Program-made: the position numbers and the translations under genes
Assembly (NCBI GenBank): GCA_963662285.2
Contig: CAXXMV010000002.1
Location: forward strand, 800,001 to 864,000
DNA length: 64,000 nucleotides
Direction of reading: 5' to 3'
DNA from: a bacterium
GTDB taxonomy: Bacteria > Hinthialibacterota > Hinthialibacteria > Hinthialibacterales > Hinthialibacteraceae
In this document: positions 6,992-42,768 of the stretch, piece by piece
Layout: every line of letters begins with the position of its first letter
How positions within the stretch are numbered: the stretch's first letter is position 1
The notes under the pieces: generated by a model
What the model was told of the DNA's origin: nothing
What the model saw: the letters and a program-made list of their open reading frames with translations, nothing else
Database searches by the model: none

Positions 6992-8500
6992 TTAAATGCT
7001 TAACATTCCTCGCACAAAGACCGGATTTGTGAAAGCCAATAGTTGATCGAGAGGACGTCCATAGCGGTATATTTCTACCCGGAACCATTGAATATCAGCT
7101 GTTGCATGTTCATAGAATTTCAGGTTGGTATCATGGATTGAAGAGAGGGGCATTTCACAATAAATGCCATGGTTGGTTTTTATTCGAATGAAAGCGCGTT
7201 CTAATTGAGTAATATCAATATATAAGGCGAAGACTGAATCTACTGGAACGCGCAATTCATCGCCGATAAAAGCTCCGCCATGCTCTGAATCGAGTCTCAT
7301 GGATATCGCCGGTTCGCTGGTTGAATAAAAATGCCCTTGTTTCAGGGCGGAAAGCAGTTGGGTTTCTGATGCTCCCTCGCTCATAACCAGGCTTTTAGGG
7401 CATTTTTCGAGGATATCATATTGGGCTGGTTGCACTGAACCTTTGCCGCAGACTCCGTATATCCGATGTCCCGCATTGAGCAGCGTGTCCCATAAGTCAA
7501 AAGATTTCAATATTTCAGGGAAACGTTCATTCCACGAACCAGACCATATTTCAATCAGGTCAACGCTGCTCCAATCCATATTTTCGACATGCCATGATGA
7601 ACGGGCGCCGCTTGGATGCAGCCCATGGGGATGTACAACGCATAATAATCCACCCTTTGAGTGAACTGAATGAATGAAATCGGTCATGTGATTGATCGGC
7701 TCGGGATCATCAGGCGCAAACCAATCGTGGACGCCGAGTAGCAGAGCGTGTCCAAATGACCATTGGATCTCCTGTCCCCGGATCAGGGTAATGGGAGATT
7801 TAGAAGCCAGGTTTTTTAGAGGAGGGGTATTGTGGTCAGTCAGAGCAAGAAAGTTGTAGCCGACGTTTTTATAAACATCCAGCGTCTGTTCGGGGCTTAA
7901 TGATCCTTGGCTATGTGACGTATGCTCGTGTAATTCTCCGATATACCAGGCGAGGTTTACTTCGTTAACCAGCATTTGATCTATTGTATAAAGATCAGCA
8001 GGAACTGGAATTGAATCATTCTCTTCAGTTGCCTCAACAATTAAGGTGATTCGACAGTTATTCTTAATAGGTAAAGTTGTATGAATAATAGCCGTCCAGG
8101 CGCCGGAATGAATTTCTCCTGAATTGTATCGTTTTGAAACGTTTATCAGATCAAATTCTTTCCAATCCGTGAACGAAGCATCCCAGCGGCCGCAGAAATT
8201 ATTTTGCGCATCGATAAATATTACAGAAGTTGATTTATTATCTGTAATTAGTAGAGAATCATGTAAAATATCCTGTATAGTCTCTTTTTGAACCGGTGTG
8301 ATAGCCGGGTGATCGAGGTAATGGTCTATGCACTGATTAACCCAAGTAATATCAGTGTTAAATGATTCTATTTCGAGTAAGCACTTAAAGCGTAGACGCC
8401 TTGTTCCATCTGGAATATCGATAGAAACAGGCATGGAAACAGGAACTTGGTTTGTTGGAAGGGCAATTGACTGATTGAATATTACGTTCCATAAAGGCAT
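6992..8500 (-). CDS. PHP-domain (CehA/McbA-like) metallohydrolase
   Basis: GELHEHT, ALTDHN, GQE..GHA, HP motifs; C-terminal YRVE..AFTNPVFV-type tail. Confidence 0.7.
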   Translation of the reverse strand: MPLWNVIFNQSIALPTNQVPVSMPVSIDIPDGTRRLRFKCLLEIESFNTDITWVNQCIDHYLDHPAITPVQKETIQDILHDSLLITDNKSTSVIFIDAQNNFCGRWDASFTDWKEFDLINVSKRYNSGEIHSGAWTAIIHTTLPIKNNCRITLIVEATEENDSIPVPADLYTIDQMLVNEVNLAWYIGELHEHTSHSQGSLSPEQTLDVYKNVGYNFLALTDHNTPPLKNLASKSPITLIRGQEIQWSFGHALLLGVHDWFAPDDPEPINHMTDFIHSVHSKGGLLCVVHPHGLHPSGARSSWHVENMDWSSVDLIEIWSGSWNERFPEILKSFDLWDTLLNAGHRIYGVCGKGSVQPAQYDILEKCPKSLVMSEGASETQLLSALKQGHFYSTSEPAISMRLDSEHGGAFIGDELRVPVDSVFALYIDITQLERAFIRIKTNHGIYCEMPLSSIHDTNLKFYEHATADIQWFRVEIYRYGRPLDQLLAFTNPVFVRGMLSI

Positions 8501-20051: not shown

Positions 20052-21431
20052 ATGAATACTTTCAAACGTCGTTCATTCTTAAAAACATCAGCCATAGGCG
20101 CCGCTGGCGTTAGTTTGGGGCTTAACGCCTCACAAGCAATCGCACAGGTTCCAGGCGAACGGCCCGCAGCCAACGATAAAGTTAGCGTATTGAATCCACG
20201 CAACCTTACTCCGCTCAGCTTCATCATCGACGATTCAACTTGTCTGGTGAATCTGGCTTACTATGGGATCCCCCAATTTGCAGAAGTGTTCCCGGATAAT
20301 TACCGGCAGCCCTGGCAATCGCTGCCCCGTGAGATTCCCGATTCCTTCGTGAGGAAGTTCGGTGAATGGTGTCATGAAAACGGCGTCAAAGGCAAGTACA
20401 GCATCGTCCCCTATCCGGCTTGCACCGGATGGGTGGATCGTTTCATCCCCGGATGGACCGAGAAGCAACTAAAAGAAAGCCTCGACCTGGTGCGCACCCT
20501 GATGCAACCCGATTGGGATATCCATCCCGAAATGATTTCTCATACCAGAGTGATCGATACCAAGACAGGTCGTCCATTTCCTGAAGCAACCGAATATTTC
20601 ATGGAAAACTGGCGCTGGACCGATGACAAATCGGCTGATCAACTGGCCGACTACCTCGCGTATGCTCTACGCATCCTGAAGAATGCCGGGCTATACTGCG
20701 AAGGCATCACCACTCCCGGTGGTTTCGCTTCCCGCGTATTGCCAGAGTTATCCCTCGCTACCCTGCAAGCCTGCAAAGACGTCTACCAAACCGAAATCCC
20801 CCATTATTTCCGTCATCTCTTCACCGATGATACCAGCGTTGCGCCGCGCGTTGAGAATGTTTCTGGACTCGATAGCGATGATCCGCAATGCGTCGTCTCC
20901 ATCGTCGGTTGCACTGGCGATTGGTTCGGCGGCTGGGATGGCTTAAACCTCGGCTCTGCTGACCGTTGTATCACCGAAGACCTGAAAGGCGGACGTTTGC
21001 CTGAAGTTATCCAACGCGGAGAACCGGCTATCATAGTCTGCCACTGGCCGGGCATCTATTACAACGGCAAAGAATTCGGCTTCAAAATTTTCCAGGAAGT
21101 CGTCAAGCGTCTTAACGCCGCCTATGATAATCTGATCTGGATGAAAAATTGCGAAATCGCCCGTTACTGGGCGGCTAAGGAATTAACCGCAATACAAAAT
21201 TCAGCGGACGGCATCGACCTCAAAGCGCCTTACGCCTGTCCAGATTTCACCATTCAATTAGAAGCAACCGAAGGTGAACCAATATTCAAAGTCAAAGGCG
21301 AGAACACCCCTCTCCAAAGGGTAGACTCAATGCTCAAACTAAAAAGCGGCGCCTATACGCGCGACGCGAACAAAACCATAGCCTGTTTCGATCTTCCCAA
21401 AGGAAAATCATCACTTGTGTTCGCCTCATAA
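20052..21431 (+). CDS. Tat-exported hypothetical protein (possible deacetylase-like barrel)
   Basis: KRRSFLK signal; IIDDS, HPEMISHT, CHWPG motifs. Confidence 0.65.
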   Translation: MNTFKRRSFLKTSAIGAAGVSLGLNASQAIAQVPGERPAANDKVSVLNPRNLTPLSFIIDDSTCLVNLAYYGIPQFAEVFPDNYRQPWQSLPREIPDSFVRKFGEWCHENGVKGKYSIVPYPACTGWVDRFIPGWTEKQLKESLDLVRTLMQPDWDIHPEMISHTRVIDTKTGRPFPEATEYFMENWRWTDDKSADQLADYLAYALRILKNAGLYCEGITTPGGFASRVLPELSLATLQACKDVYQTEIPHYFRHLFTDDTSVAPRVENVSGLDSDDPQCVVSIVGCTGDWFGGWDGLNLGSADRCITEDLKGGRLPEVIQRGEPAIIVCHWPGIYYNGKEFGFKIFQEVVKRLNAAYDNLIWMKNCEIARYWAAKELTAIQNSADGIDLKAPYACPDFTIQLEATEGEPIFKVKGENTPLQRVDSMLKLKSGAYTRDANKTIACFDLPKGKSSLVFAS

Positions 21432-23938: not shown

Positions 23939-24568
23939 CTACAGTTGTTTGATAATCTTTTCCAACTCATCCTGGCTGACAGGCTGGAACATTACCACTT
24001 CTCCGGTCTGCTCGCGAATCTTACGGCTGAAGAGAAAGCGGATGCCATCCATTTCACTTGTTTCAAATTCCGCCTTGCCTGTTTCAAACTCATATACATA
24101 AGAAATCATATCCATTGGTCGGCAAAATGTTTCATCATCGGTCGTTTTAATGTTTAATCGTAATTTTCCTCCAATTTCAGTAGAGGTTTTCCGGCTATCA
24201 GTTTCTTGCTTCATGCCCTCGCCGTTTACTTTTATAAAAGAACTGACCACGGTTCGCTTCAATGTTATTGATACTACATCAATATCAAAAATTAGTTGAT
24301 TCAAGGAAAAAGATGAATCGTCAACGTGGTTGCGGGCTTCTTCCTTTAAATAATTGGTCAGCATGATTTGAATCGAAGGAACCAGAACTTGCTGTGCAAA
24401 TATGGCTTCGATCTCCTCCATCGGGATGCTGAATGTAGTGGATACAATTTCACCAATAGTCCGCTGCGGATGCTCTTTCTGTATCGAAAGTACTTCATCA
24501 AGTTGATCACGCGTAATCAATCCGTGATCAACCAGAACTTCACCAAATGGTTTTGGCCCGTTGTTCAT
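23939..24568 (-). CDS. Hypothetical protein with N-terminal MshEN-like (GspE/PilB-N) motif
   Basis: KPFGEVLVDHGLITRDQLDEVLSIQ..RTIGEI; GGAGGAG RBS. Confidence 0.65.
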   Translation of the reverse strand: MNNGPKPFGEVLVDHGLITRDQLDEVLSIQKEHPQRTIGEIVSTTFSIPMEEIEAIFAQQVLVPSIQIMLTNYLKEEARNHVDDSSFSLNQLIFDIDVVSITLKRTVVSSFIKVNGEGMKQETDSRKTSTEIGGKLRLNIKTTDDETFCRPMDMISYVYEFETGKAEFETSEMDGIRFLFSRKIREQTGEVVMFQPVSQDELEKIIKQL

Positions 24569-24732
24569 AAAACTCCTCCACATAGTAACGCTATTTCTGC
24601 AAATTTACTTAAATACATAATCTATCCACTTATTCACGGAATAACTCTAAAAATTGTTTATTCATTCCTGTATGGTATGTAATTGAATATTGTTTTAGGT
24701 GTACATTCTAACAACTTTCAGAGGAAAATCAC

Positions 24733-25926
24733 ATGCAACCGAATTCTTGTAAGTATTTTATTTTGATCTGCATCACTTTTAGTATCTGTTTTTCATTATC
24801 TTGCGCTTCCAACTCCATCTGTAATTATTCTTCTCAAGACCAGATATCCATTAATAACCAGCGATTATTCCATCAACAGGCCATCTTTGTTTCCGGCCAG
24901 AATGGATATCACACCTACCGTATCCCGGCTTTAACCGTAACGCAACAAGGCGCAATCCTGGCCTTTTGCGAGGGACGCCAAGGCGGCGGCGATTCAGGTA
25001 ATATCGACATGGTTATGCGGCGCAGCACTGATTGCGGCCAGACCTGGGAACCCATGCAGATTTTATGGGATGACGACGGCAATACCTGCGGCAATCCCGC
25101 TCCCGTGGTTGATCGCGACACAGGAACCATCTGGCTGTTAATGACCCATAACAACGGAAAAATCAGCGAACGTGATATCAATCACGGCAAGGGAACCCGC
25201 GACGTCTGGGTAATGCATAGCAAAAATGACGGCCAGGATTGGTCAGAACCAAAGAAAATCAGTCTCCAAACCAAAAATGCCGATTGGCGCTGGTACGCCA
25301 CAGGCCCATGTCATGGCATTCAAATGCAGAATGGTCGAATGATAATCCCCTGCGATCACTCCACCGGACCCGAATTCGACCAATGGAATTCGCACATTAT
25401 ATATAGCGATGATCATGGCCAGACATGGCGCATCGGCGGAATCGAACCGGGCGCCTTCACCAACGAATGCACCATAGTTGAACTGACCGACAACTCTCTA
25501 TATCTCAATATGCGCAGCTACCGGGGAGATCATCGCCGCCAAATTTCAACCAGTAATGACAATGGATTAACCTGGACCAAAGCTCAGGCGGATCAAGCCC
25601 TGATCGAACCGAGATGCCAGGGAGCGGCCATCCGTTATACTTCCAAGCCGGAATATAGCCGGAACCGCATCCTCTTCTCCAATCCAGCCAGCGAAAAACG
25701 CGAAAAAATGACCATCCGCATCAGTTACGACGAAGCCAAAACCTGGCAGACCTCCAAAAGGATTTACGAAGGACCATCAGCCTATTCCGATCTGGCTATC
25801 CTACCGGATGGAACTGTCGCATGTTTCTATGAACGCGGTGAAAAGCACCCCTATGAAACAATAACCTTTGCGCGAATGACTCTAGCATGGCTCACCGACG
25901 GTCAGGATGCTCTAAAATCCCGATAA
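24733..25926 (+). CDS. Secreted GH33 sialidase-like protein
   Basis: YRIP motif; Asp-boxes STDCGQTW, SKNDGQDW, SDDHGQTW, SNDNGLTW, SYDEAKTW. Confidence 0.9.
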   Translation: MQPNSCKYFILICITFSICFSLSCASNSICNYSSQDQISINNQRLFHQQAIFVSGQNGYHTYRIPALTVTQQGAILAFCEGRQGGGDSGNIDMVMRRSTDCGQTWEPMQILWDDDGNTCGNPAPVVDRDTGTIWLLMTHNNGKISERDINHGKGTRDVWVMHSKNDGQDWSEPKKISLQTKNADWRWYATGPCHGIQMQNGRMIIPCDHSTGPEFDQWNSHIIYSDDHGQTWRIGGIEPGAFTNECTIVELTDNSLYLNMRSYRGDHRRQISTSNDNGLTWTKAQADQALIEPRCQGAAIRYTSKPEYSRNRILFSNPASEKREKMTIRISYDEAKTWQTSKRIYEGPSAYSDLAILPDGTVACFYERGEKHPYETITFARMTLAWLTDGQDALKSR

Positions 25927-25952
25927 TCTATCTAAATACTTCAGATTCAGAC

Positions 25953-25993
25953 AAAAAGGCGCCTCTTCCTTAGTAAGAAAAAGAGCCTTTTTT
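25953..25993 (+). terminator. Probable terminator after the sialidase
   Basis: AAAAAGGC...GCCTTTTTT imperfect stem. Confidence 0.55.
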
Positions 25994-26069
25994 CTTCAGA
26001 TAACTATTGCATTGTTATGCTTTGTGTTATAATCCGTTGTATTATGTAATAACCTTTGGAGGTTTATTC

Positions 26070-26543
26070 ATGATTCTATCCCGTGCGAAATTCTTAAGGA
26101 CTTCAGCGGCGGCTATCCTGGCGGCTGTCATCTCACCTATCCCCATCCCCGCGATGCCTCGCTTTGGATTTGGAAGGATTATCGAAGTGAAAGATTTAAC
26201 CCTTGAAACATTTGCTCCTCATGTGAATACCATTTTTCGTATCACCCGGCAGGATGCCAGTGCGTGTGATCTGGAATTGGTGGAAGCAGTGGACCTGTCT
26301 AAACCACATGACTATAGTTCCGGCGCTCCATGTATGGAAATATTTTCTCTATTGTTTCGCTGCCCCGCAGGTGATTATATTCCTCAGGATTCTTATGAAT
26401 TTTCTCATCCAGAGTCAGGACGCTTCACCATATTTATTACGCCCGTTGTTGGTGAAGATACCAAATATCACCATTACCAGGCCTTGTTTAATCGCCTGGT
26501 TTCTGTTCCTGATGACCATTCTACTAATAAGGAGAATCTCTAA
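26070..26543 (+). CDS. DUF6916-like protein with degenerate Tat-like leader
   Basis: GGAGG RBS; SRAKFLR leader; F.PHVN..F, LELVE, FSLLF, PQ..Y...HP, IFITPV, YQALFN pattern. Confidence 0.7.
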   Translation: MILSRAKFLRTSAAAILAAVISPIPIPAMPRFGFGRIIEVKDLTLETFAPHVNTIFRITRQDASACDLELVEAVDLSKPHDYSSGAPCMEIFSLLFRCPAGDYIPQDSYEFSHPESGRFTIFITPVVGEDTKYHHYQALFNRLVSVPDDHSTNKENL

Positions 26544-27052
26544 TGCCTTTTATTGGACAAATTATGCCTTGGGCGCCCAACTTCGCACCTCAAGATTGGG
26601 CTTTTTGTAATGGGCGAGAAATACAAGTTTCTCAAAATACAGCACTTTTTGCTTTAATAGGAAACAAATATGGCGGCAATGGCACATCAACCTTCGCTGT
26701 GCCTGATCTTCGAGGCCGGGTCATCATGGGCGCCGGCAACGGGCCTGGATTGACGCCGCGTCTTTTGGGAGACAAGGGAGGAGTGGAGACCGTTGTTTTA
26801 ACCGAGGATCAATTGCCTCCTCACACGCATACATTTCAGGTTCCCGCCACCTCAGACCGGGCGACTACGGATAATCCGGTTGGCAACGTTCCTGCTAAGG
26901 GGGATATGGATTTATATGCATCTACCGGAACTTCATCACAAAATATGATCTCATCCGCAACCGGGGCTAACAGCCCTGTTTCTATTATGCAACCGTACTG
27001 TGTTATGAACTATATTATTTGTCTGAATGGTTCATTCCCAACACGAAGTTAG
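26543..27052 (+). CDS. Phage tail-collar-domain protein (MdpB-like)
   Basis: FIGQI..WAPNFAP..WAFCNG, ALFALIG.KYGGNG..TFAVPDLRGRV, QLPPHTH, MQPY..MNYIIC..G.FP; TAATG coupling to upstream gene. Confidence 0.92.
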   Translation: MPFIGQIMPWAPNFAPQDWAFCNGREIQVSQNTALFALIGNKYGGNGTSTFAVPDLRGRVIMGAGNGPGLTPRLLGDKGGVETVVLTEDQLPPHTHTFQVPATSDRATTDNPVGNVPAKGDMDLYASTGTSSQNMISSATGANSPVSIMQPYCVMNYIICLNGSFPTRS

Positions 27053-27078
27053 AAACATACACCCAGGGAGGCTTTTTC

Positions 27079-27588
27079 ATGTCTGAGTTTTTATTAGGAA
27101 CTATCATGCCTTGGCCAGTGGATTTCGCTCCGGCAGGATGGGCTTTTTGCGATGGGAGATTGCAGTCGATCTCTCAAAACCAGGCTTTGTACTCACTTAT
27201 TGGAAATATGTATGGCGGCAATGGCATCGTGACTTTCGCTCTACCCGATTTACGGGGACGGGTAATCACGTGCGACAATTCTCTTAGATACATAGGATAT
27301 CTAGGAGGATATGAAATGGCGTATCTGAATCTCCAAAATTTACCTTCTCATTCCCATTCTGCTCAATCTTACACCCCCGACCAAGCGGAAACCAATGATC
27401 CAACAATCGGATCCATAGTCTTTGCCAAATCCGCCCGAAATGCTTATGCAACCTCCGGTCAGCAGGTAATGCAAGCGGGAACTTCGGCGCCTACTGGTCA
27501 GGGACAACCCGTCTCGGTGGTACAACCTTTTATTGCCTTAAACTACATCATTTGTACTCAGGGAGTTTTTCCATCCCGGTTGTATTAA
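27079..27588 (+). CDS. Phage tail-collar-domain protein (MdpB-like), paralog 2
   Basis: GGAGG RBS; FLLGTI..WPVDFAP.GWAFCDG, FALPDLRGRV, NLPSHSH, VQPFIALNYIIC..GVFP. Confidence 0.92.
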   Translation: MSEFLLGTIMPWPVDFAPAGWAFCDGRLQSISQNQALYSLIGNMYGGNGIVTFALPDLRGRVITCDNSLRYIGYLGGYEMAYLNLQNLPSHSHSAQSYTPDQAETNDPTIGSIVFAKSARNAYATSGQQVMQAGTSAPTGQGQPVSVVQPFIALNYIICTQGVFPSRLY

Positions 27589-27625
27589 TCCATTAACATG
27601 TTTTTGCTAATTAGGAGTCAATAGA

Positions 27626-30529
27626 ATGAAACGAACCAGACCATCATTATGGTATTCTTTTATCTTGGTTTTAGCAATATTGTTCTTAAATCCCTTGGAT
27701 GGCTTGGCTCAATTGACATCGGATGGAGACAATTTGACGGTTCAATCCGCCGCTTCGACTATTGCCGGGGAACCACGTGCGGCTATCTCGGACAATAGCA
27801 TAACCGCTCTTGTCTGGGAGCAGGGCGAGACAAACGAGGATGTGTATCTCCGTTTGTATAATGCATCTGCGGCGCCGCTTACAGAATCAATACAAGTGAA
27901 CACAATGACGGCTTCCAATCAATGCGAACCGGATATCGCCGTTAAAGGTAATCTGGCTATTTTCGCTGTAGTATGGGAAAGCATGAATCAAGCAAGCGCT
28001 GCTTCCGGTCTGGATATTGTCTTACGTCTATACGATTCCACTGGTGCGGCTCTCTCCGGGGAAATTGTGGTCAATCAGGTCACTGCAGGTCATCAAAAAA
28101 ATCCCCGTGTGGCAATCAACCAAAAGACTGGCGAGATACTTGTTATTTGGCAATCCGCCGTGAATGGAATTTATGGCATCTACTCTCACCGCTTCTCATT
28201 ACAAGGCGTCAGCCTGGGAGCGGATGAGACAATTATACAAATTGACGAAGACTGCGCCCAACCAGAACTGGCATTCAGCCCTGGTGGAAAGAGCATCATT
28301 ACCTGGGAACAAGGCGCCCGGAATAAACGCACGGTTGCTTTCAAGCGCTATAATGCAGATGGAAGCGCTTTAGACGCCAAACCGCAAACATCAAGTATTC
28401 CATGCCTACCCTATGGTCATGACGTAGAGATGCTCGGCTCCGATCAGATTGTTTTCGCCATGGCCATTGATGGGGAAATTCATTGCAGTTTGATTGACGA
28501 TACGGGCAAGGAACTTTTGAATACCGCCGTCTCTGGCGCCAATGGAAATAGTCCAAAACTGACGGCATTGGGAACGGATGATTTTGTCTTGTCATGGACT
28601 GGCGCCGATAATCTTATTAAATCTACTGCCTATTCAATGGAGTCCACCTCCTTTTCCGACGCTATTACGGTAAGCGCAATTTCTCAATTCGATGGGCTAA
28701 GCGCTATCGCTTCCAATCGCTTCAGGGGAAATATTGGCGTGGCGTGGGAAGCTAGCAATACTGGTGAACCGTTTGGCGCAATCAACGCTCAATTTTATAT
28801 GGGCGATGTTCCTCCTCTTTCTTTTCCGACCAATGTGCTGGAGATTGCGCCCCAGACCGGAGACTTAGCGCATTATGGAAACCAAATGATAAAAGGAATC
28901 ACTCAGGCTTACTCTGATTTGGAGTTCGCAACAAAATTGATTCCGCTTATCGTCAACGATAACATTAGTAATGTTTCTAAGAGCATTGAGTTAGCGCAAG
29001 ACGCCATTGCTGATCCTTCTAATTTGGCGATCCTGGGCGCTGCGGCTTCCAAGAATACATTGGCCATAGCCCAAGAAAATGCAAAAGCTGCTGATCCGCT
29101 GGTGCAATACACATTTTCTTCATCCCAGCAGTTGGATGCCATGTCCCATCTGGTAAAAGTAGCGCCCCTGGATGATTATCAAGTGGATGCAATGGCTTCT
29201 ATCTTGGCCTATAACGGATTGTCCAAGATTTTTCTGATCGTTGAAGATTCCGCCTATGGTATTGGATTTGAACGCCTTAAAAATAAGGAAGGAATCCAGG
29301 TTATTGATGATATCGTCTTCCAGAGCGGCGCCCTTGATACATCACAGATCATAACCAGGATTTCCTCAGCTATTGCAGCAGGAGCGCAGGTCGGCGTCAT
29401 GGCAGGTTATGAATCAGATGCCTCAACTTTATTACAGGCGCTGGCGGCTGAAACCGATACCGGTACTCGTAATTTTAGTTGGATATTCTCGGATGGTATG
29501 ACTACCGATGCCGTGTTGCAAGGTTTACCCTTCGATAAAACACTGTTCTATCACCCGGTTCTAATGGGATTAACGCCAAGTATCACAGATCAATTGCAGA
29601 CCTCCATTAAATTCAAAGCAGATTATCAAGCCGCCAATAATGGTGAGGTTCCAGAGTGGCCCGCCTATTATGCGTATGATACTGTTGCAGCCTTCAACGC
29701 CATGCTGAACGCCTCATCCAGCCAGACCCGCTCCGCATTATGGGAAACTGTTTCCGGACTGCATTTTGAAGGAGTAACTGGCGCCAAATGGTTGGACAGC
29801 AAAGGCTCTCTGCAAAGCGCGATTTATGATGTGAATTATGTAATCTTGGGCAAGTTCAAAATCATCGGTGAAGAACGGGTGAAGCAACCAAATTCATCCA
29901 GTAACGGTGCGGCCAAGGCGGCGGTGCGTCTTACTCCATCAGCGGTAGATGATTCTCTGGTTTACGACAATTATACCTACCGACTATCTGGCGATGATCC
30001 CCTGATCAGCCACGCAGCCGGCGGCCCTGATGGAAACGGCAATTGGATAGCGCAATCCAGGGAACTGGATATGGGCTGGGTGCTAATGGCCTATTACGAA
30101 GACGCCCAACGCAAATTGACATCCGATGGAAAAGCGTTTGGATTCAAGGATGGCAACCAATATACTCTTCAGTTTGAACTCAGCCGGGAAAATCTTTCTT
30201 CTCCCCAACCGGGTGGATCGATTTTAGAGATTGAAATAACTGCACATGCTGAACTAAGCGATGAACAAGGAAACGCTGGATACATTACCCATGTCTTAGA
30301 GGACAAAGTAATTTCATTCACCGATTGGGCGACTCCCGGTCAGTTAGTCGTACAGGTTCCATTTGAGTATCACAGCCAGACTCCTGATTGGTTTCCACCG
30401 GAATACGCCAAAGATCTTTTGAACTGGGAAATACTCCTGCTCAACTCAGCGCATCAAAAGCTGGTATTATCATCCGTCACCATCATCGCAAAAGAAAGCA
30501 CGGGCATCAACGCTTTTATGCTGTATTAA
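27626..30529 (+). CDS. Large secreted mosaic protein (beta-repeat region + type-1 periplasmic-binding-protein domain + C-terminal domain)
   Basis: Signal peptide; QVNT..NQ.EPDIA..FAVVWES repeats; PQTGDLAHYG, ILGAAAS, DSAYG, YAYDTV, FEGVTG (LivK-like); ends ESTGINAFMLY. Confidence 0.7.
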   Translation: MKRTRPSLWYSFILVLAILFLNPLDGLAQLTSDGDNLTVQSAASTIAGEPRAAISDNSITALVWEQGETNEDVYLRLYNASAAPLTESIQVNTMTASNQCEPDIAVKGNLAIFAVVWESMNQASAASGLDIVLRLYDSTGAALSGEIVVNQVTAGHQKNPRVAINQKTGEILVIWQSAVNGIYGIYSHRFSLQGVSLGADETIIQIDEDCAQPELAFSPGGKSIITWEQGARNKRTVAFKRYNADGSALDAKPQTSSIPCLPYGHDVEMLGSDQIVFAMAIDGEIHCSLIDDTGKELLNTAVSGANGNSPKLTALGTDDFVLSWTGADNLIKSTAYSMESTSFSDAITVSAISQFDGLSAIASNRFRGNIGVAWEASNTGEPFGAINAQFYMGDVPPLSFPTNVLEIAPQTGDLAHYGNQMIKGITQAYSDLEFATKLIPLIVNDNISNVSKSIELAQDAIADPSNLAILGAAASKNTLAIAQENAKAADPLVQYTFSSSQQLDAMSHLVKVAPLDDYQVDAMASILAYNGLSKIFLIVEDSAYGIGFERLKNKEGIQVIDDIVFQSGALDTSQIITRISSAIAAGAQVGVMAGYESDASTLLQALAAETDTGTRNFSWIFSDGMTTDAVLQGLPFDKTLFYHPVLMGLTPSITDQLQTSIKFKADYQAANNGEVPEWPAYYAYDTVAAFNAMLNASSSQTRSALWETVSGLHFEGVTGAKWLDSKGSLQSAIYDVNYVILGKFKIIGEERVKQPNSSSNGAAKAAVRLTPSAVDDSLVYDNYTYRLSGDDPLISHAAGGPDGNGNWIAQSRELDMGWVLMAYYEDAQRKLTSDGKAFGFKDGNQYTLQFELSRENLSSPQPGGSILEIEITAHAELSDEQGNAGYITHVLEDKVISFTDWATPGQLVVQVPFEYHSQTPDWFPPEYAKDLLNWEILLLNSAHQKLVLSSVTIIAKESTGINAFMLY

Positions 30530-30659
30530 TCATGGTTCAACACGGACTTTAGTACTTTTAAATTTGTTTCTTGTCTGAATAAGGATATTTAGGAAGAGCA
30601 AGATATCTATGATACGAGAATGCTATGTCCTGTAAATCCTGATTCAGATGTTTTTTAGT

Positions 30660-30718
30660 CCGGAGTTCAGGCGTGATTTTGGTTACAAAATAACACCAAA
30701 ATCACGCCTGAACTCCGG
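30660..30718. repeat. Perfect 24-bp inverted repeat between convergent genes
   Basis: CCGGAGTTCAGGCGTGATTTTGGT-11nt-ACCAAAATCACGCCTGAACTCCGG. Confidence 0.85.
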
Positions 30719-30746
30719 GTTGATAATTGGTTATATTATATTGTTT

Positions 30747-31805
30747 TTACTTAACTTCCAGCATATGATTAATCGCAACCAGCGCTTTTTTGGCAATTTC
30801 AGGGTCAACCGTAACTTCATATACTTCATTCTCAAGACTATAGAGAATCTTTTCCAAGGTAATCAGTTGCATGTGCTTACAAAACATGCTGCATGATTTT
30901 ACGAAGTCAACTTCGGGGTATTCAACCGCCAGATTGGCCGCCATCTCGCATTCGGTGGCCAGATAAACCCGCTTCAGCTGCGGATGATCTTCAATGTATT
31001 TGCACATCTGAGTAGTGCTGCCATAGAAATCCGCTTCTCTCAGAACCTCCGGTGGACATTCCCAATGCACCAGCACCGCAGTCTCGTCGCCGCCTTTGGG
31101 CATCTCGTGCTGTTGTCGGATATCCAAAATCATTTTTCTGGTAAATTTTTCATGAACCTCGCAAGCCGCGAATCGGTTATCTTCCTTACCTGGGTAGATA
31201 ATCTCCAATCCCTGCGATTCCAGGTCGCTCTGTAGATTAGCGCCCATCAACGAATCGGGGAAAAAGATCACCCGGTTCGTCTTGAATTCCCTCGCCGCAT
31301 GTTGCACAACCTTGGCGCCATTGGCCGAAGTGCAGCAATAGTCGCTCTCCGCTTTAATGTCGGCGTAACTGTTAACATAGGTCACCACCGGCGATCCGGG
31401 GTATCGTTTTCTATATTCGCGCACAACTTCCGCCGAAAAAGGCTCCGCCAGACTGCAACCGGCATTGAGATCAGCTATCAGCACCTTTTTGTCTGGGCTG
31501 AGAATCTTGGCGGTTTCAGCCATAAACTTTACCCCGTCAAACAGTATGATGGGTTTATCGGTTTCAGCTGCCCGTCGCGCCAATCCCAGAGAGTCTCCGC
31601 GTTCCTGCTCGCCGGATAACTGGTAAACCAGAGGCGCCATGTAGTTATGTCCCAAAATAAGCACATTTTTGGCTTCTTTTAGTTGGATAATTTTTGCTAT
31701 AAGGTCTTTGTTGGCTTGAAATTCAAGATGCTGGTCAGGTGATGATTGCAAAGCCTGATCGATCTTATCCAATTGCGCGTTATTGAGCTGCGCATGTGCG
31801 TCCAT
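30747..31805 (-). CDS. nadA: Quinolinate synthase A
   Basis: GHNY, GDSL, GVKFMAETAKILSP, AGCSLA, YVNS, CTSAN, CEVH, CKHM. Confidence 0.95.
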   Translation of the reverse strand: MDAHAQLNNAQLDKIDQALQSSPDQHLEFQANKDLIAKIIQLKEAKNVLILGHNYMAPLVYQLSGEQERGDSLGLARRAAETDKPIILFDGVKFMAETAKILSPDKKVLIADLNAGCSLAEPFSAEVVREYRKRYPGSPVVTYVNSYADIKAESDYCCTSANGAKVVQHAAREFKTNRVIFFPDSLMGANLQSDLESQGLEIIYPGKEDNRFAACEVHEKFTRKMILDIRQQHEMPKGGDETAVLVHWECPPEVLREADFYGSTTQMCKYIEDHPQLKRVYLATECEMAANLAVEYPEVDFVKSCSMFCKHMQLITLEKILYSLENEVYEVTVDPEIAKKALVAINHMLEVK

Positions 31806-40856: not shown

Positions 40857-42539
40857 TTAATGACTATTCTGCTTCATCATCCCGCCTAAAACCGCGTTCT
40901 TAACCGCTGTAATCTCTTTAACCGGAATTATCAGGCGCGAAACCATGTCGCCGTTTTCAACATAAGCATCTATCGTAAGCCCAGGATTATCTGCATCTTT
41001 GGGAACTTCAATCATCAACAGGGGATTAATCCCACCTTTGAAAAATCTGGCCATTTGCGCTTTAGCGAAATTGATGCCTTCCAGAACATTAATTCGCGCC
41101 CATACGAATGAATCCGGCGTGATCATCTTTTTCACATCAGCCGTATCTATATTTTCCATAAGCCGGTCCAAAACCTTGGGCATGTCTTCCGACGTAAAAA
41201 CCAGCAAGTCTTTATATATAGCATAATAATAATCAACATTTTGCAGTTTCATCATCTCCGCTATAGGAGATTCCGGGTCATCCGCTTTGTATCTGAGACC
41301 GAGTTTCGAATAGGCGATATCTTTATAGGTTCCAATATTCTTTTCTTCTTTAACTTCGAGTTTGATGCCCGTTGCCGGTTGCATCATTCCCGCAGAGTTT
41401 TGGATAATCTCATCCATACTATCGAATATTGCCAGCGCTTTTTTTGTATCTTTAATTTCTATCAACTCAGTAAGCGCCATAGGATTTACAGATTGTTCAG
41501 CCGCATTCATAGTCAATCCGATTGGACCCGCATAGACGTCTTCAATATCCTCCATAATCTTCTTGAGTCCATCGAGAGGCATATCTAGTTTTTCAAAATC
41601 ACTCATAAAGCGTTCTTTTGTCATTTCATAAAGTTTTGGATCAATATTCATAACCGCCGACACAAAATCGCCGGGCTTAATTAGAGATATAACTTTTGAT
41701 ATATCAACCATCTTCGCGATATTTATATATTCAGCGAAAGGCGTTCCCGGCTTAACCGAGACGCGTTTGCGCAATTGGGCTTGTTCTGCAGAAAGCTGGA
41801 TATCAAGCCGTGTAATGCTGATCTGGTCCATCAGATCCAAAATCCAACCCACCTCTATTTCCAGCATAGGAACTACATTAGCTGACATAAAAGGCGCCAT
41901 GCTCATGGTTTTAGAAAAATCACCAATCATCTCTTCAGATAATTCTTTCAGAACTGGAGTTAATTTATCATTATTAATCCACAAACTCAGGTCTTCCTCC
42001 GGGTCTGCTGGCCAGTTAGTCAGTTTATCTAAATCAACGCTTAAAAACCAATTTTTCGCTTTTTCTGGCATTTCCCCATCATATACCAGCAGCGCATTAT
42101 CTCGAAAAATAAGGGGATGTCTCTTTTTATTATATATACCCGGTTCAACTTCCTCTAATTCTGATTTCTCAATTACCATATCTTTATCAAGAACTGGCGC
42201 AATCAACGCTACTTTTACATCGTCATCACCGTCCAAAGATACTAACAACCAGATAGGTTTGGTTTTATCGATTCCATCAAGCGTTTTCACTTGAAGCGCA
42301 TCTATTGCAACAGTTTCCAATTCACCGCCCAGGGGAAGACCAGCTGCGGGAAGTAGAAAATCGTTCATATGCTTTGAACCCTGCTCTATCCCGGCAAGGC
42401 GGGCCACCGCAATAACATCATCCGGTAAAAGTGAAAATAACTGTTTCATTTCAGGTGATTTAACCTGCTCAGATGCAAATGTAGCCGAAATAGTTACCGT
42501 CAAAACTAATCCAGCAATAAAAAGCGACCTTTTCAACAT
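40857..42539 (-). CDS. Secreted hypothetical protein
   Basis: AAGGAG RBS; signal peptide MLKRSL...ATFA; long ORF with no recognised catalytic motif. Confidence 0.7.
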   Translation of the reverse strand: MLKRSLFIAGLVLTVTISATFASEQVKSPEMKQLFSLLPDDVIAVARLAGIEQGSKHMNDFLLPAAGLPLGGELETVAIDALQVKTLDGIDKTKPIWLLVSLDGDDDVKVALIAPVLDKDMVIEKSELEEVEPGIYNKKRHPLIFRDNALLVYDGEMPEKAKNWFLSVDLDKLTNWPADPEEDLSLWINNDKLTPVLKELSEEMIGDFSKTMSMAPFMSANVVPMLEIEVGWILDLMDQISITRLDIQLSAEQAQLRKRVSVKPGTPFAEYINIAKMVDISKVISLIKPGDFVSAVMNIDPKLYEMTKERFMSDFEKLDMPLDGLKKIMEDIEDVYAGPIGLTMNAAEQSVNPMALTELIEIKDTKKALAIFDSMDEIIQNSAGMMQPATGIKLEVKEEKNIGTYKDIAYSKLGLRYKADDPESPIAEMMKLQNVDYYYAIYKDLLVFTSEDMPKVLDRLMENIDTADVKKMITPDSFVWARINVLEGINFAKAQMARFFKGGINPLLMIEVPKDADNPGLTIDAYVENGDMVSRLIIPVKEITAVKNAVLGGMMKQNSH

Positions 42540-42768
42540 GTTTAACTCCTTCTGTTTAGTAATCATCATAGGGATATTACGTCTCTTCTCATTATAACTA
42601 TACGAATATTAGACTATTTATATTCAACGCATGTTAATCTGTATTCATAACATTTCAAGCGATTGTCAAAAATATTTTCGTTTATTGTCACGTTTGGTCT
42701 TCGAACAAGCCAATCTTTTCTGGCTTGTTCGTCGGGCGCCAAGGCGCCAATAGCAAGACCACAATAAC

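Follow-up and report, generated by a model that had tools for sequence, protein, structure and literature searches.

What do phage-type fibre tips do in a bacterial cell when no phage machinery lies around them? The question is raised by a 4.5-kb operon in the 64,000-nucleotide stretch of DNA analyzed here, called the window (contig C2:800001-864000 of the source genome, G000). Its four genes encode, in order, a DUF6916 protein, two paralogous tail-collar proteins (collars A and B) and a 967-aa exported protein that combines a propeller with a type-I periplasmic-binding (PBP1) domain. The operon is a real, conserved variant of an uncharacterized cellular cassette, and it is well supported as a reduced, lineage-specific, two-collar form of that cassette that lacks the GNAT gene and has a new type of partner. 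Its new features are two collars derived by lineage duplication, the lack of any cassette-type GNAT found genome-wide, a DUF6916 leader without the twin-arginine (RR) pair and the propeller-PBP1 partner.

Two stand-alone collars in a compact operon

The original prediction, made from the sequence of the window, had described four co-oriented, tightly spaced genes with ribosome-binding sites and a TAATG overlap, and the open reading frame (ORF) listing and the sequence bear this out. The four genes are tightly packed on the plus strand, a Shine-Dalgarno-like GGAGG or AGGAG is found 6-8 bases ahead of all four start codons and a one-base stop/start overlap (TAATG at 26540-26544) links the DUF6916 and collar A genes. 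The identities that had been proposed for the genes were upheld by Pfam searches. The DUF6916 protein matched PF21880 (E 2.1e-22), collars A and B matched Collar (E 6.2e-27 and 6.5e-28, respectively, with a further match of collar A to Gp10_C at E 6.7e-4, below the cut-off) and the large protein matched families of periplasmic-binding protein (PBP) type. None of the four proteins had a match in NCBIfam. Genome-wide, G000 (7.29 Mb in 8 contigs, 92.5% complete) encodes only two collar domains and one DUF6916 protein, all of them in the operon.

Both collars are full fibre-tip modules consisting of a collar and a head, with no shaft, attachment region or signal peptide. The Collar domain (PF07484) occupies residues 5-61 and 7-63 of the two 169-aa proteins, both of which begin at the collar and can be aligned over their full length with 20 cassette collars. 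Tail-fibre families of PHROGs match them over residues 5-161 with E values down to 5e-25. The HxH motif that had been read in both proteins is present, as HTH in collar A (PPHTHTF) and as HSH in collar B (PSHSHSA), and P-x-H-x-H together with W19, C22, GG44-45, P54 and R59 is invariant in all 22 aligned collars. In the short tail fibre of phage T4, gp12, the HxH is said to hold a metal ion on the threefold axis. Gp12 (1ocy, 1pdi, 5iv5) resembles the collars in the homology of its collar domain (E 2.7e-9 for the match to 1ocy) and in having HxH, whereas the collars lack its N-terminal shaft and baseplate-binding part and have a cellular context; the equivalence of their HxH to the metal site is presumed.

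Identity between collars A and B is 50-60% in the core and 25-36% in the head, whereas head identity among orthologs is 56-69% for A and 41-59% for B. As the two heads differ from one another yet each is conserved among orthologs, the operon encodes two distinct heads, each of which is maintained. The origin of the pair was addressed with a tree of 40 rows, made up of the 22 aligned collars plus the three collars of each of L046, L061, L075, L085, L087 and L096; the tree thus takes in six cross-phylum three-collar loci, the other three-collar loci being left out. In cassettes of Pseudomonadota, Acidobacteriota and the genomes G028, G029 and G033, collar positions 1, 2 and 3 group separately across phyla, in keeping with an old triplication whose gene order stayed fixed. 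In contrast, collars A and B of G000 and of its relatives G009 and G015 form a clade of their own (100/95), apart from the three positional groups of the sampled cross-phylum cassettes. Within this clade the B orthologs group together (100/99) on a stem of 0.46 and evolve faster than the A orthologs. Judged from this tree, A and B appear to have arisen by duplication within their own lineage rather than as ancient positional paralogs. G016 and G017 have lineage-specific collar copies as well.

The cellular cassette and its distribution

The usual cellular cassette consists of three MdpB/COG4675 collar paralogs in fixed order, a DUF6916 protein, a GNAT and a giant surface protein. Like the operon, the cassette has stand-alone collars of about 170 aa with the PxHxH motif, DUF6916 and, next to these, a gene in the same orientation for a large exported protein, and it too has no phage context. 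The operon differs in having two collars, no GNAT, a single RR-less DUF6916 protein and a 967-aa propeller-PBP1 protein as partner. The absence of GNAT extends beyond the operon: its flanks have none either, and a tblastn search of the genome with five cassette GNATs gave at best 35% identity over 63 aa (E 8.5e-6). The two-collar, GNAT-less composition given by the original prediction is upheld.

A collar-alignment pattern search of species genomes gave 602 matches, of which 601 were confirmed as collar relatives. The best 80 loci were kept and annotated with hidden Markov models built for this analysis; they come from Bacteroidota, Chloroflexota, Myxococcota, Acidobacteriota, Actinomycetota, Bacillota, Pseudomonadota, Cyanobacteria, Verrucomicrobia, Kiritimatiellia, Armatimonadota and others. 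Among these best 80 loci DUF6916 was found within 4 kb of 23/33 three-collar runs and GNAT within 4 kb of 20/33. A co-oriented ORF of at least 1000 aa adjoined 17 of the 30 blocks with at least three collars and 7 of the 41 single-collar blocks, versus 24 of 463 control genes (genes of the same 80 loci at least 3 kb from a cassette). These counts substantiate the composition that the original prediction had given for the usual cassette, namely three collars plus GNAT and DUF6916 near a large secreted protein.

Pfam scans of 22 large neighbors gave matches for 21, with Big_9/cadherin types in 11, DUF11 in 6 and Beta_helix in 4. Type IX secretion system (T9SS) C-terminal domains were found on large neighbors in three loci (Lutibacter, Aequorivita and an uncultured Cytophagales bacterium) and SLH domains on those of two Paenibacillus loci; these surface anchors fit what the respective phylum uses. 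The large partner in the window is lineage-specific and is not an immunoglobulin-type or beta-helix giant. DUF6916 clusters in the Atlas are commonest in Verrucomicrobiota. In a viral-contig collection (78 loci), most collars lay inside longer fibre proteins, and DUF6916 and the cassette GNAT occurred in 1 and 4 loci, respectively; the viral status of those loci that have cassette-like tandem collars is as labeled only.

Conservation was followed in a set of 41 genomes (G000 and 40 others), 20 of which belong to the family. DUF6916 was found in 14 of the 41 and in 10 of the 20 family genomes, and collars were also present in 11 of the 15 DUF6916 regions examined outside G000. Full-length orthologs of the large protein are encoded in three of the 20 family genomes, G000, G009 (72% identity) and G015 (56%). 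The linkage of the large gene to collar cassettes, on which the original prediction had relied, was found in all three: the large gene directly follows DUF6916 and two collars in the same order, and the one-base overlap of DUF6916 and collar A is common to the three genomes. The flanks are a sialidase-like gene and nadA in G000, an aldo-keto reductase and a penicillinase-repressor-type gene in G009, and a glycosidase and GNAT just upstream plus a GFO/IDH/MocA oxidoreductase in G015. Since the order is the same in three genera while the flanks differ, the four genes constitute a conserved unit. In a fourth genus (G016), DUF6916 and two collars are followed by a partner with a hydrophobic N-terminal segment (judged by eye). 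It shares the repeats of the large protein and has a GEVED domain, whereas the PBP domain is missing, and this retention of the repeats indicates that the repeat/propeller region is the part linked to the cassette. Note that the G016 partner gene (L029 9733-12223, G016:C21) consists of two overlapping ORFs in different frames, which is either an assembly frameshift or a pseudogene. In another relative, a DUF6916 gene is followed directly by GNAT with no collar within 18 kb (L035 8424-9380, G011:C64), indicating that a DUF6916-GNAT pair can stand alone.

We found no paper on the cellular collar cassette as a system, judging by titles or passages, and none on DUF6916. The cassette is widespread, with the 601 confirmed species-genome matches spread over many phyla, and its proteins are plentiful enough to be seen in metaproteomes of soil (PMC5579227). 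The two-collar operon may be the most tractable form, as it spans 4.5 kb, has no acetyltransferase and encodes a 967-aa partner rather than a giant of 2,000-3,000 aa. The PBP1 domain of that partner is a recognizable ligand-binding domain that can be screened. The operon could therefore make testable what domesticated fibre tips bind and how signal-less tips get to the surface.

The coordinates of the operon and of the signals around it are collected in Table 1. The original prediction had placed the operon between a probable terminator and a long hairpin. The downstream hairpin is as long as claimed, whereas the upstream one is weak, and a consensus terminator scan listed neither. The upstream hairpin is probably the terminator of the sialidase-like gene and hence the 5' boundary of the operon. 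The downstream hairpin sits between the convergent large gene and nadA and is probably a bidirectional terminator, hence the 3' boundary. The 16-base seeds of its arms occur nowhere else in the 7.29-Mb genome, and as an inverted repeat it is unusually long for a terminator. The sequence TGTTATAAT, read by eye, may be the promoter; a sigma-70 scan, which requires a -35 hexamer, did not report it. Two DNA sequencing runs of one study, and no RNA run, were listed as containing the stretch.

Table 1 Features of the operon and its surroundings (window coordinates)
Feature	Coordinates	Strand	Remarks
DUF6916 gene	26070..26543	+	157 aa; ATG behind GGAGG; mechanical ORF starts at TTG 26007
Collar A gene	26543..27052	+	169 aa; start overlaps DUF6916 stop (TAATG)
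Collar B gene	27079..27588	+	169 aa; ATG behind GGAGG; mechanical ORF start 27019
Large exported protein gene	27626..30529	+	967 aa; begins 38 bases past collar B
Upstream hairpin	25949..25995	+	weak, -10.7 kcal/mol (RNA fold), then U6 run
Candidate promoter, TGTTATAAT	26025..26033	+	fits extended -10 box TGnTATAAT; 36 bases before first start; by eye
Downstream hairpin	30655..30723		perfect 29-pair, -47.3 kcal/mol (RNA fold)
Sialidase-like gene	24733..25926		upstream of operon
nadA	30747..31805	-	convergent with large gene

Fifty window ORFs of at least 100 aa were scanned with Pfam. The two collars excepted, no phage, contractile injection system or type VI secretion system family was found among them, in agreement with the original prediction. 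In 44 of the fifty, all outside the operon, the scan shows housekeeping and carbohydrate genes, namely those for PGK, GAPDH, SecG, LepB, NadA, RNase E/G, squalene-hopene cyclase and glycosidases. The ORFs 20052-21431 (459 aa), 6992-8500 (minus strand, 502 aa) and 40857-42569 (minus strand, 570 aa) had no Pfam family at E 1e-5, and 23939-24583 (minus strand, 214 aa) had none at E 0.01.

The large partner and the DUF6916 leader

The large protein begins with a putative Sec-type leader (residues 1-29), recognized by eye. A propeller follows at about residues 38-400. Self-BLAST of the N-terminal region gave no internal repeats; seven repeats were noticed by eye and were then confirmed by a model of residues 28-405, built with 11 sequences, which has seven blades (predicted local distance difference test score, pLDDT, 81.4; predicted template-modeling score 0.87). 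The best structural match of the model was CylK (7ron_A), with Z 37.0 and a root-mean-square deviation of 3.1 over 341 residues, 7 units above the next entry, and Foldseek matched it to another CylK entry (7roo) at E 8.1e-13. The modeled propeller is thus closest in fold to the C-terminal domain of CylK, although a shared fold does not show a shared activity. The N-terminal repeat is of a kind usual in giant secreted proteins. At E <= 0.001 it is matched by 13,794 library proteins, with up to 28 copies in proteins of up to 7,923 aa, and it co-occurs with DUF4347, RTX, Big_9/cadherin, Calx-beta and T9SS domains. A 1039-aa ORF of G000 (C2:1573048-1574061) is a paralog that has only these repeats in common with the large protein.

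The type-I periplasmic-binding domain spans residues 404-736. Within it, residues 407-736 match ANF_receptor (E 9.3e-21; 74.7 bits versus a cut-off of 25.4) and Peripla_BP_6 (E 6.8e-17; 62.6 bits versus a cut-off of 31.7), and the domain also matches the LIV-binding protein 3td9 (E 1.9e-5). Residues 745-967 form a beta-rich C-terminal domain that has no Pfam match and whose Atlas leads, all below 0.8, are to carbohydrate-binding-module clusters. Neither the large protein nor the DUF6916 protein had a match in PHROGs.

The AlphaFold2 model of the DUF6916 protein (pLDDT 80.7) has a six-stranded beta-barrel at residues 45-144 and a disordered leader. Foldseek gave no match for this model at E <= 0.001 in PDB or BFVD. 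The best VIA matches were barrels of PilZ/YcgR-N type (Z 7.9 to 6.7), and many phage neck or tail barrels scored about Z 5, but these scores are in the range of common arrangements and no fold family was assigned.

The leader of the DUF6916 protein, LSRAKFLRTSAAAILAAV (also given as MILSRAKFLRTSAAAILAAVISPIPIPA), resembles a signal of the twin-arginine translocation (Tat) pathway but lacks the second arginine. Its core reads L-S-R-A-K-F-L-R in G000, a departure from the Tat pattern of S/T-R-R-x-F-L-K before a mildly hydrophobic stretch. Thus, of the Tat-like leader that had been proposed, the resemblance stands and the twin arginine does not: RR has become RA in this clade and the leader is non-canonical. 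The RR-less form is kept in G009 and G015, whereas RR is present in G016 (IRRDFLS) and G026. Overall, DUF6916 proteins of the relatives have a leader in 8 of 16 cases, 2 with RR (G016 and G026) and 6 with a single R, and among the 80 cross-phylum loci 8/32 DUF6916 ORFs have a canonical RR leader and 24/32 have no leader. The leader therefore derives from a Tat signal by loss of the second arginine and is conserved in this form. A pattern search of G000 gave 38 ORFs with [ST]RRxF[LI] leaders versus 2 with a single R, of which the DUF6916 gene has the only convincing leader, and TatC is encoded (C2:1806278-1807096, E 2.9e-67). By this simple pattern the at least 38 very uniform leaders make up a large Tat-type repertoire. 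In each of five loci (L062, L078, L083, L106 and L114), a DUF6916 gene with a canonical RR leader is accompanied by a second, leaderless one, indicating that the family has exported and cytoplasmic forms that are able to coexist in one locus.

Possible roles of the operon

Our preferred reading, which we hold tentatively, is that the operon encodes a device for extracytoplasmic binding, with a mixed A/B knob and the propeller-PBP1 protein acting together. Collars A and B would assemble into a mixed trimeric knob, as do the three collars of the virophage DSLV2. The knob would have a core in which HxH presumably holds metal and would present two kinds of variable head surface. It would work outside the cytoplasm together with the large protein, the two acting as a device whose ligand would be a glycan or something else, either dissolved or on a cell surface. 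In it, the propeller would face the cassette and the PBP1 domain would add a pocket for a small molecule. DUF6916, being coupled to collar A, would provide the sole export route that the sequence offers for the signal-less collars, which would cross the membrane as a folded complex.

Such export would resemble Tat 'hitchhiker' export, where the subunit with the Tat signal takes a signal-less one along, for example in hydrogenase-2 HybO/HybC. The likeness is in a small leader-bearing DUF6916 protein translationally coupled to signal-less partners and in the RR leaders of relatives and of other phyla; the differences are that the leader in the window lacks the second arginine and that most DUF6916 proteins are leaderless. 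Because of these two differences the DUF6916 export step is the weakest of the proposed mechanism.

The nearest experimental precedent for a mixed collar trimer is DSLV2 (Aquatic Virophage 1 lineage), described in 2025, and with this precedent the heteromeric mini-fibres of the original prediction are plausible. In that report (PMC12724248), co-purification of three consecutive PF07484 proteins and a band at about 55 kDa on a native gel showed that they form one heterotrimer. The complex appears as 16-nm fibres and binds Synechococcus cells, with a variable head patch binding the cell surface. Like the operon, DSLV2 has consecutive genes for small PF07484 proteins of similar length. DSLV2 differs in being viral, with capsid-attached collars, three genes, no DUF6916 and no large partner. 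Classical examples of collar-domain proteins outside phages are RhiB (Rhizobium rhiABC(D) operon) and MrpB (Microcystis mrpAB(C) genes), which like collars A and B are encoded in small operons with no known biochemical function, and the related extracellular glycoprotein MrpC of Microcystis has been implicated in cell-cell contact (PMC13133039, PMC3328848); for these proteins no DUF6916, propeller or PBP1 partner is reported. The mosaic adhesive trimer (MAT) fibres of Bdellovibrio, as described in PMC10769870, resemble the proposed knob in being cell-encoded, phage-fibre-like surface trimers with diverse tips, but they are long single-chain fibres.

A complex prediction with two copies of collar A, one of collar B and residues 36-157 of DUF6916 gave scores of 0.79, 0.01 and 0.00 against a mark of 0.32 and was counted neither for nor against binding. 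Several observations weigh against the preferred reading. The chaperoning or piggy-back export by DUF6916 and the docking on the large protein that the original prediction had proposed find no support in these results, nor does any contact among the four proteins. The pairing of the large protein with the cassette rests on four genera of one family. A homolog of the large protein was found in 0/80 cross-phylum loci, and an adjacent giant ORF in 0/10 two-collar blocks of other phyla. Paralogs of the PBP and C-terminal parts are encoded elsewhere in G000, G009, G013 and G015, in G000 for example away from any collar gene. No signal peptide was found on collars in any phylum examined. The leader reads SRAKFLR in a genome that has 38 canonical RR leaders, which casts doubt on routing through Tat and hence on the export of a folded complex. 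As 24/32 DUF6916 proteins elsewhere are leaderless, export via DUF6916 cannot be the general mechanism of the cassette, and this proportion together with the GNAT of the usual cassette suggests that the ancestral module may act inside the cell.

This last point leads to the best placed of the alternatives, which we nevertheless consider unlikely: the collars, with or without DUF6916, would act in the cytoplasm on the neighboring exported protein or its expression (holding, modifying or sensing it before export) and would form no surface structure. The signal-less collars and the leaderless majority of DUF6916 proteins favor such a role, as does the GNAT of 20/33 three-collar runs, which is presumably cytoplasmic. 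The Paenibacillus cassettes point the same way, as they lie beside SLH-anchored proteins and their DUF6916 ORFs have no Tat-type leader. However, the only known role of a collar with a head, in T4 gp12 and DSLV2, is that of a receptor-binding tip that faces outward, and no cytoplasmic activity is known for the collar fold. Moreover, GNAT is absent here, and the DUF6916 leader of export type is conserved across three genera of the clade.

Also unlikely, and ranked after a cytoplasmic role, is that the large protein works on its own in the periplasm, binding solutes or acting as a sensor, and shares a transcript with the collar cassette but no physical or functional coupling. One homolog, 68% identical, is labeled 'amino acid ABC transporter substrate-binding protein' by its source, and the PBP1 domain matches branched-chain amino-acid binders. 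The paralogs noted above also favor independence. The G000 copy is a 963-aa ORF (C2:1815992-1817698) that shares only the PBP and C-terminal parts, with 40% identity over residues 402-967; it cannot be near collars because the only two collars of the genome lie in the operon. The expected importer was not found beside the large gene: none of the 50 scanned window ORFs is an ATP-binding cassette (ABC) permease or ATPase. Neither the propeller nor the C-terminal domain belongs to the make-up of transporter binding proteins, the order of the block is kept in three genera amid changing surroundings and the fourth genus keeps only a propeller-type partner, all of which argue for a tie between the large protein and the collars.

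A more elaborate version of the binding device is a small, self-sufficient recognition machine of the surface or periplasm, a ligand-gated adhesin or sensor made from a domesticated phage receptor-binding tip, in which the A/B trimer would be carried across the inner membrane as a folded passenger of DUF6916 by the atypical single-arginine leader and docked on the propeller, with ligand binding by the PBP1 domain gating the binding or release of the tip. We regard this full scheme as improbable.

Very improbable is an anti-phage or inter-bacterial device, which could be a decoy in the likeness of a phage receptor-binding tip or a bacteriocin-like binder that is released. The collars are a phage receptor-binding module, the heads of the paralogs have strongly diverged and the distribution is patchy, as seen in the presence of DUF6916 in half of the family genomes. 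However, no PADLOC model was matched by any of the four proteins and the operon has no toxin, nuclease or lysis gene, and the heads of orthologs are only slightly less conserved than the cores, unlike what an arms race would give.

Finally, a prophage or tailocin remnant, or fibres supplied in trans to a phage-like particle encoded elsewhere, is extremely improbable: the collars match tail-fibre families nearly end to end and a single Terminase_6N gene is found on contig C8, but the collars have no shaft or attachment region, the window is housekeeping DNA, the cassette is conserved with cellular partners across phyla, and the 92.5%-complete genome has no match to Baseplate_J, Phage_sheath_1, GPW_gp25 or TerL_ATPase and one sub-threshold match to a portal. 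The original prediction had allowed for a cognate prophage or contractile injection system elsewhere, and no contractile element or prophage with tail genes cognate to the collars was found in the genome at that completeness. The lone terminase gene (G000 C8:864703-865326; L200 18077-19666) adjoins a transposase, and the 18 ORFs scanned around it include no capsid, portal or tail gene. Two glutamine-amidotransferase-like genes beside it match PHROGs of unknown function.

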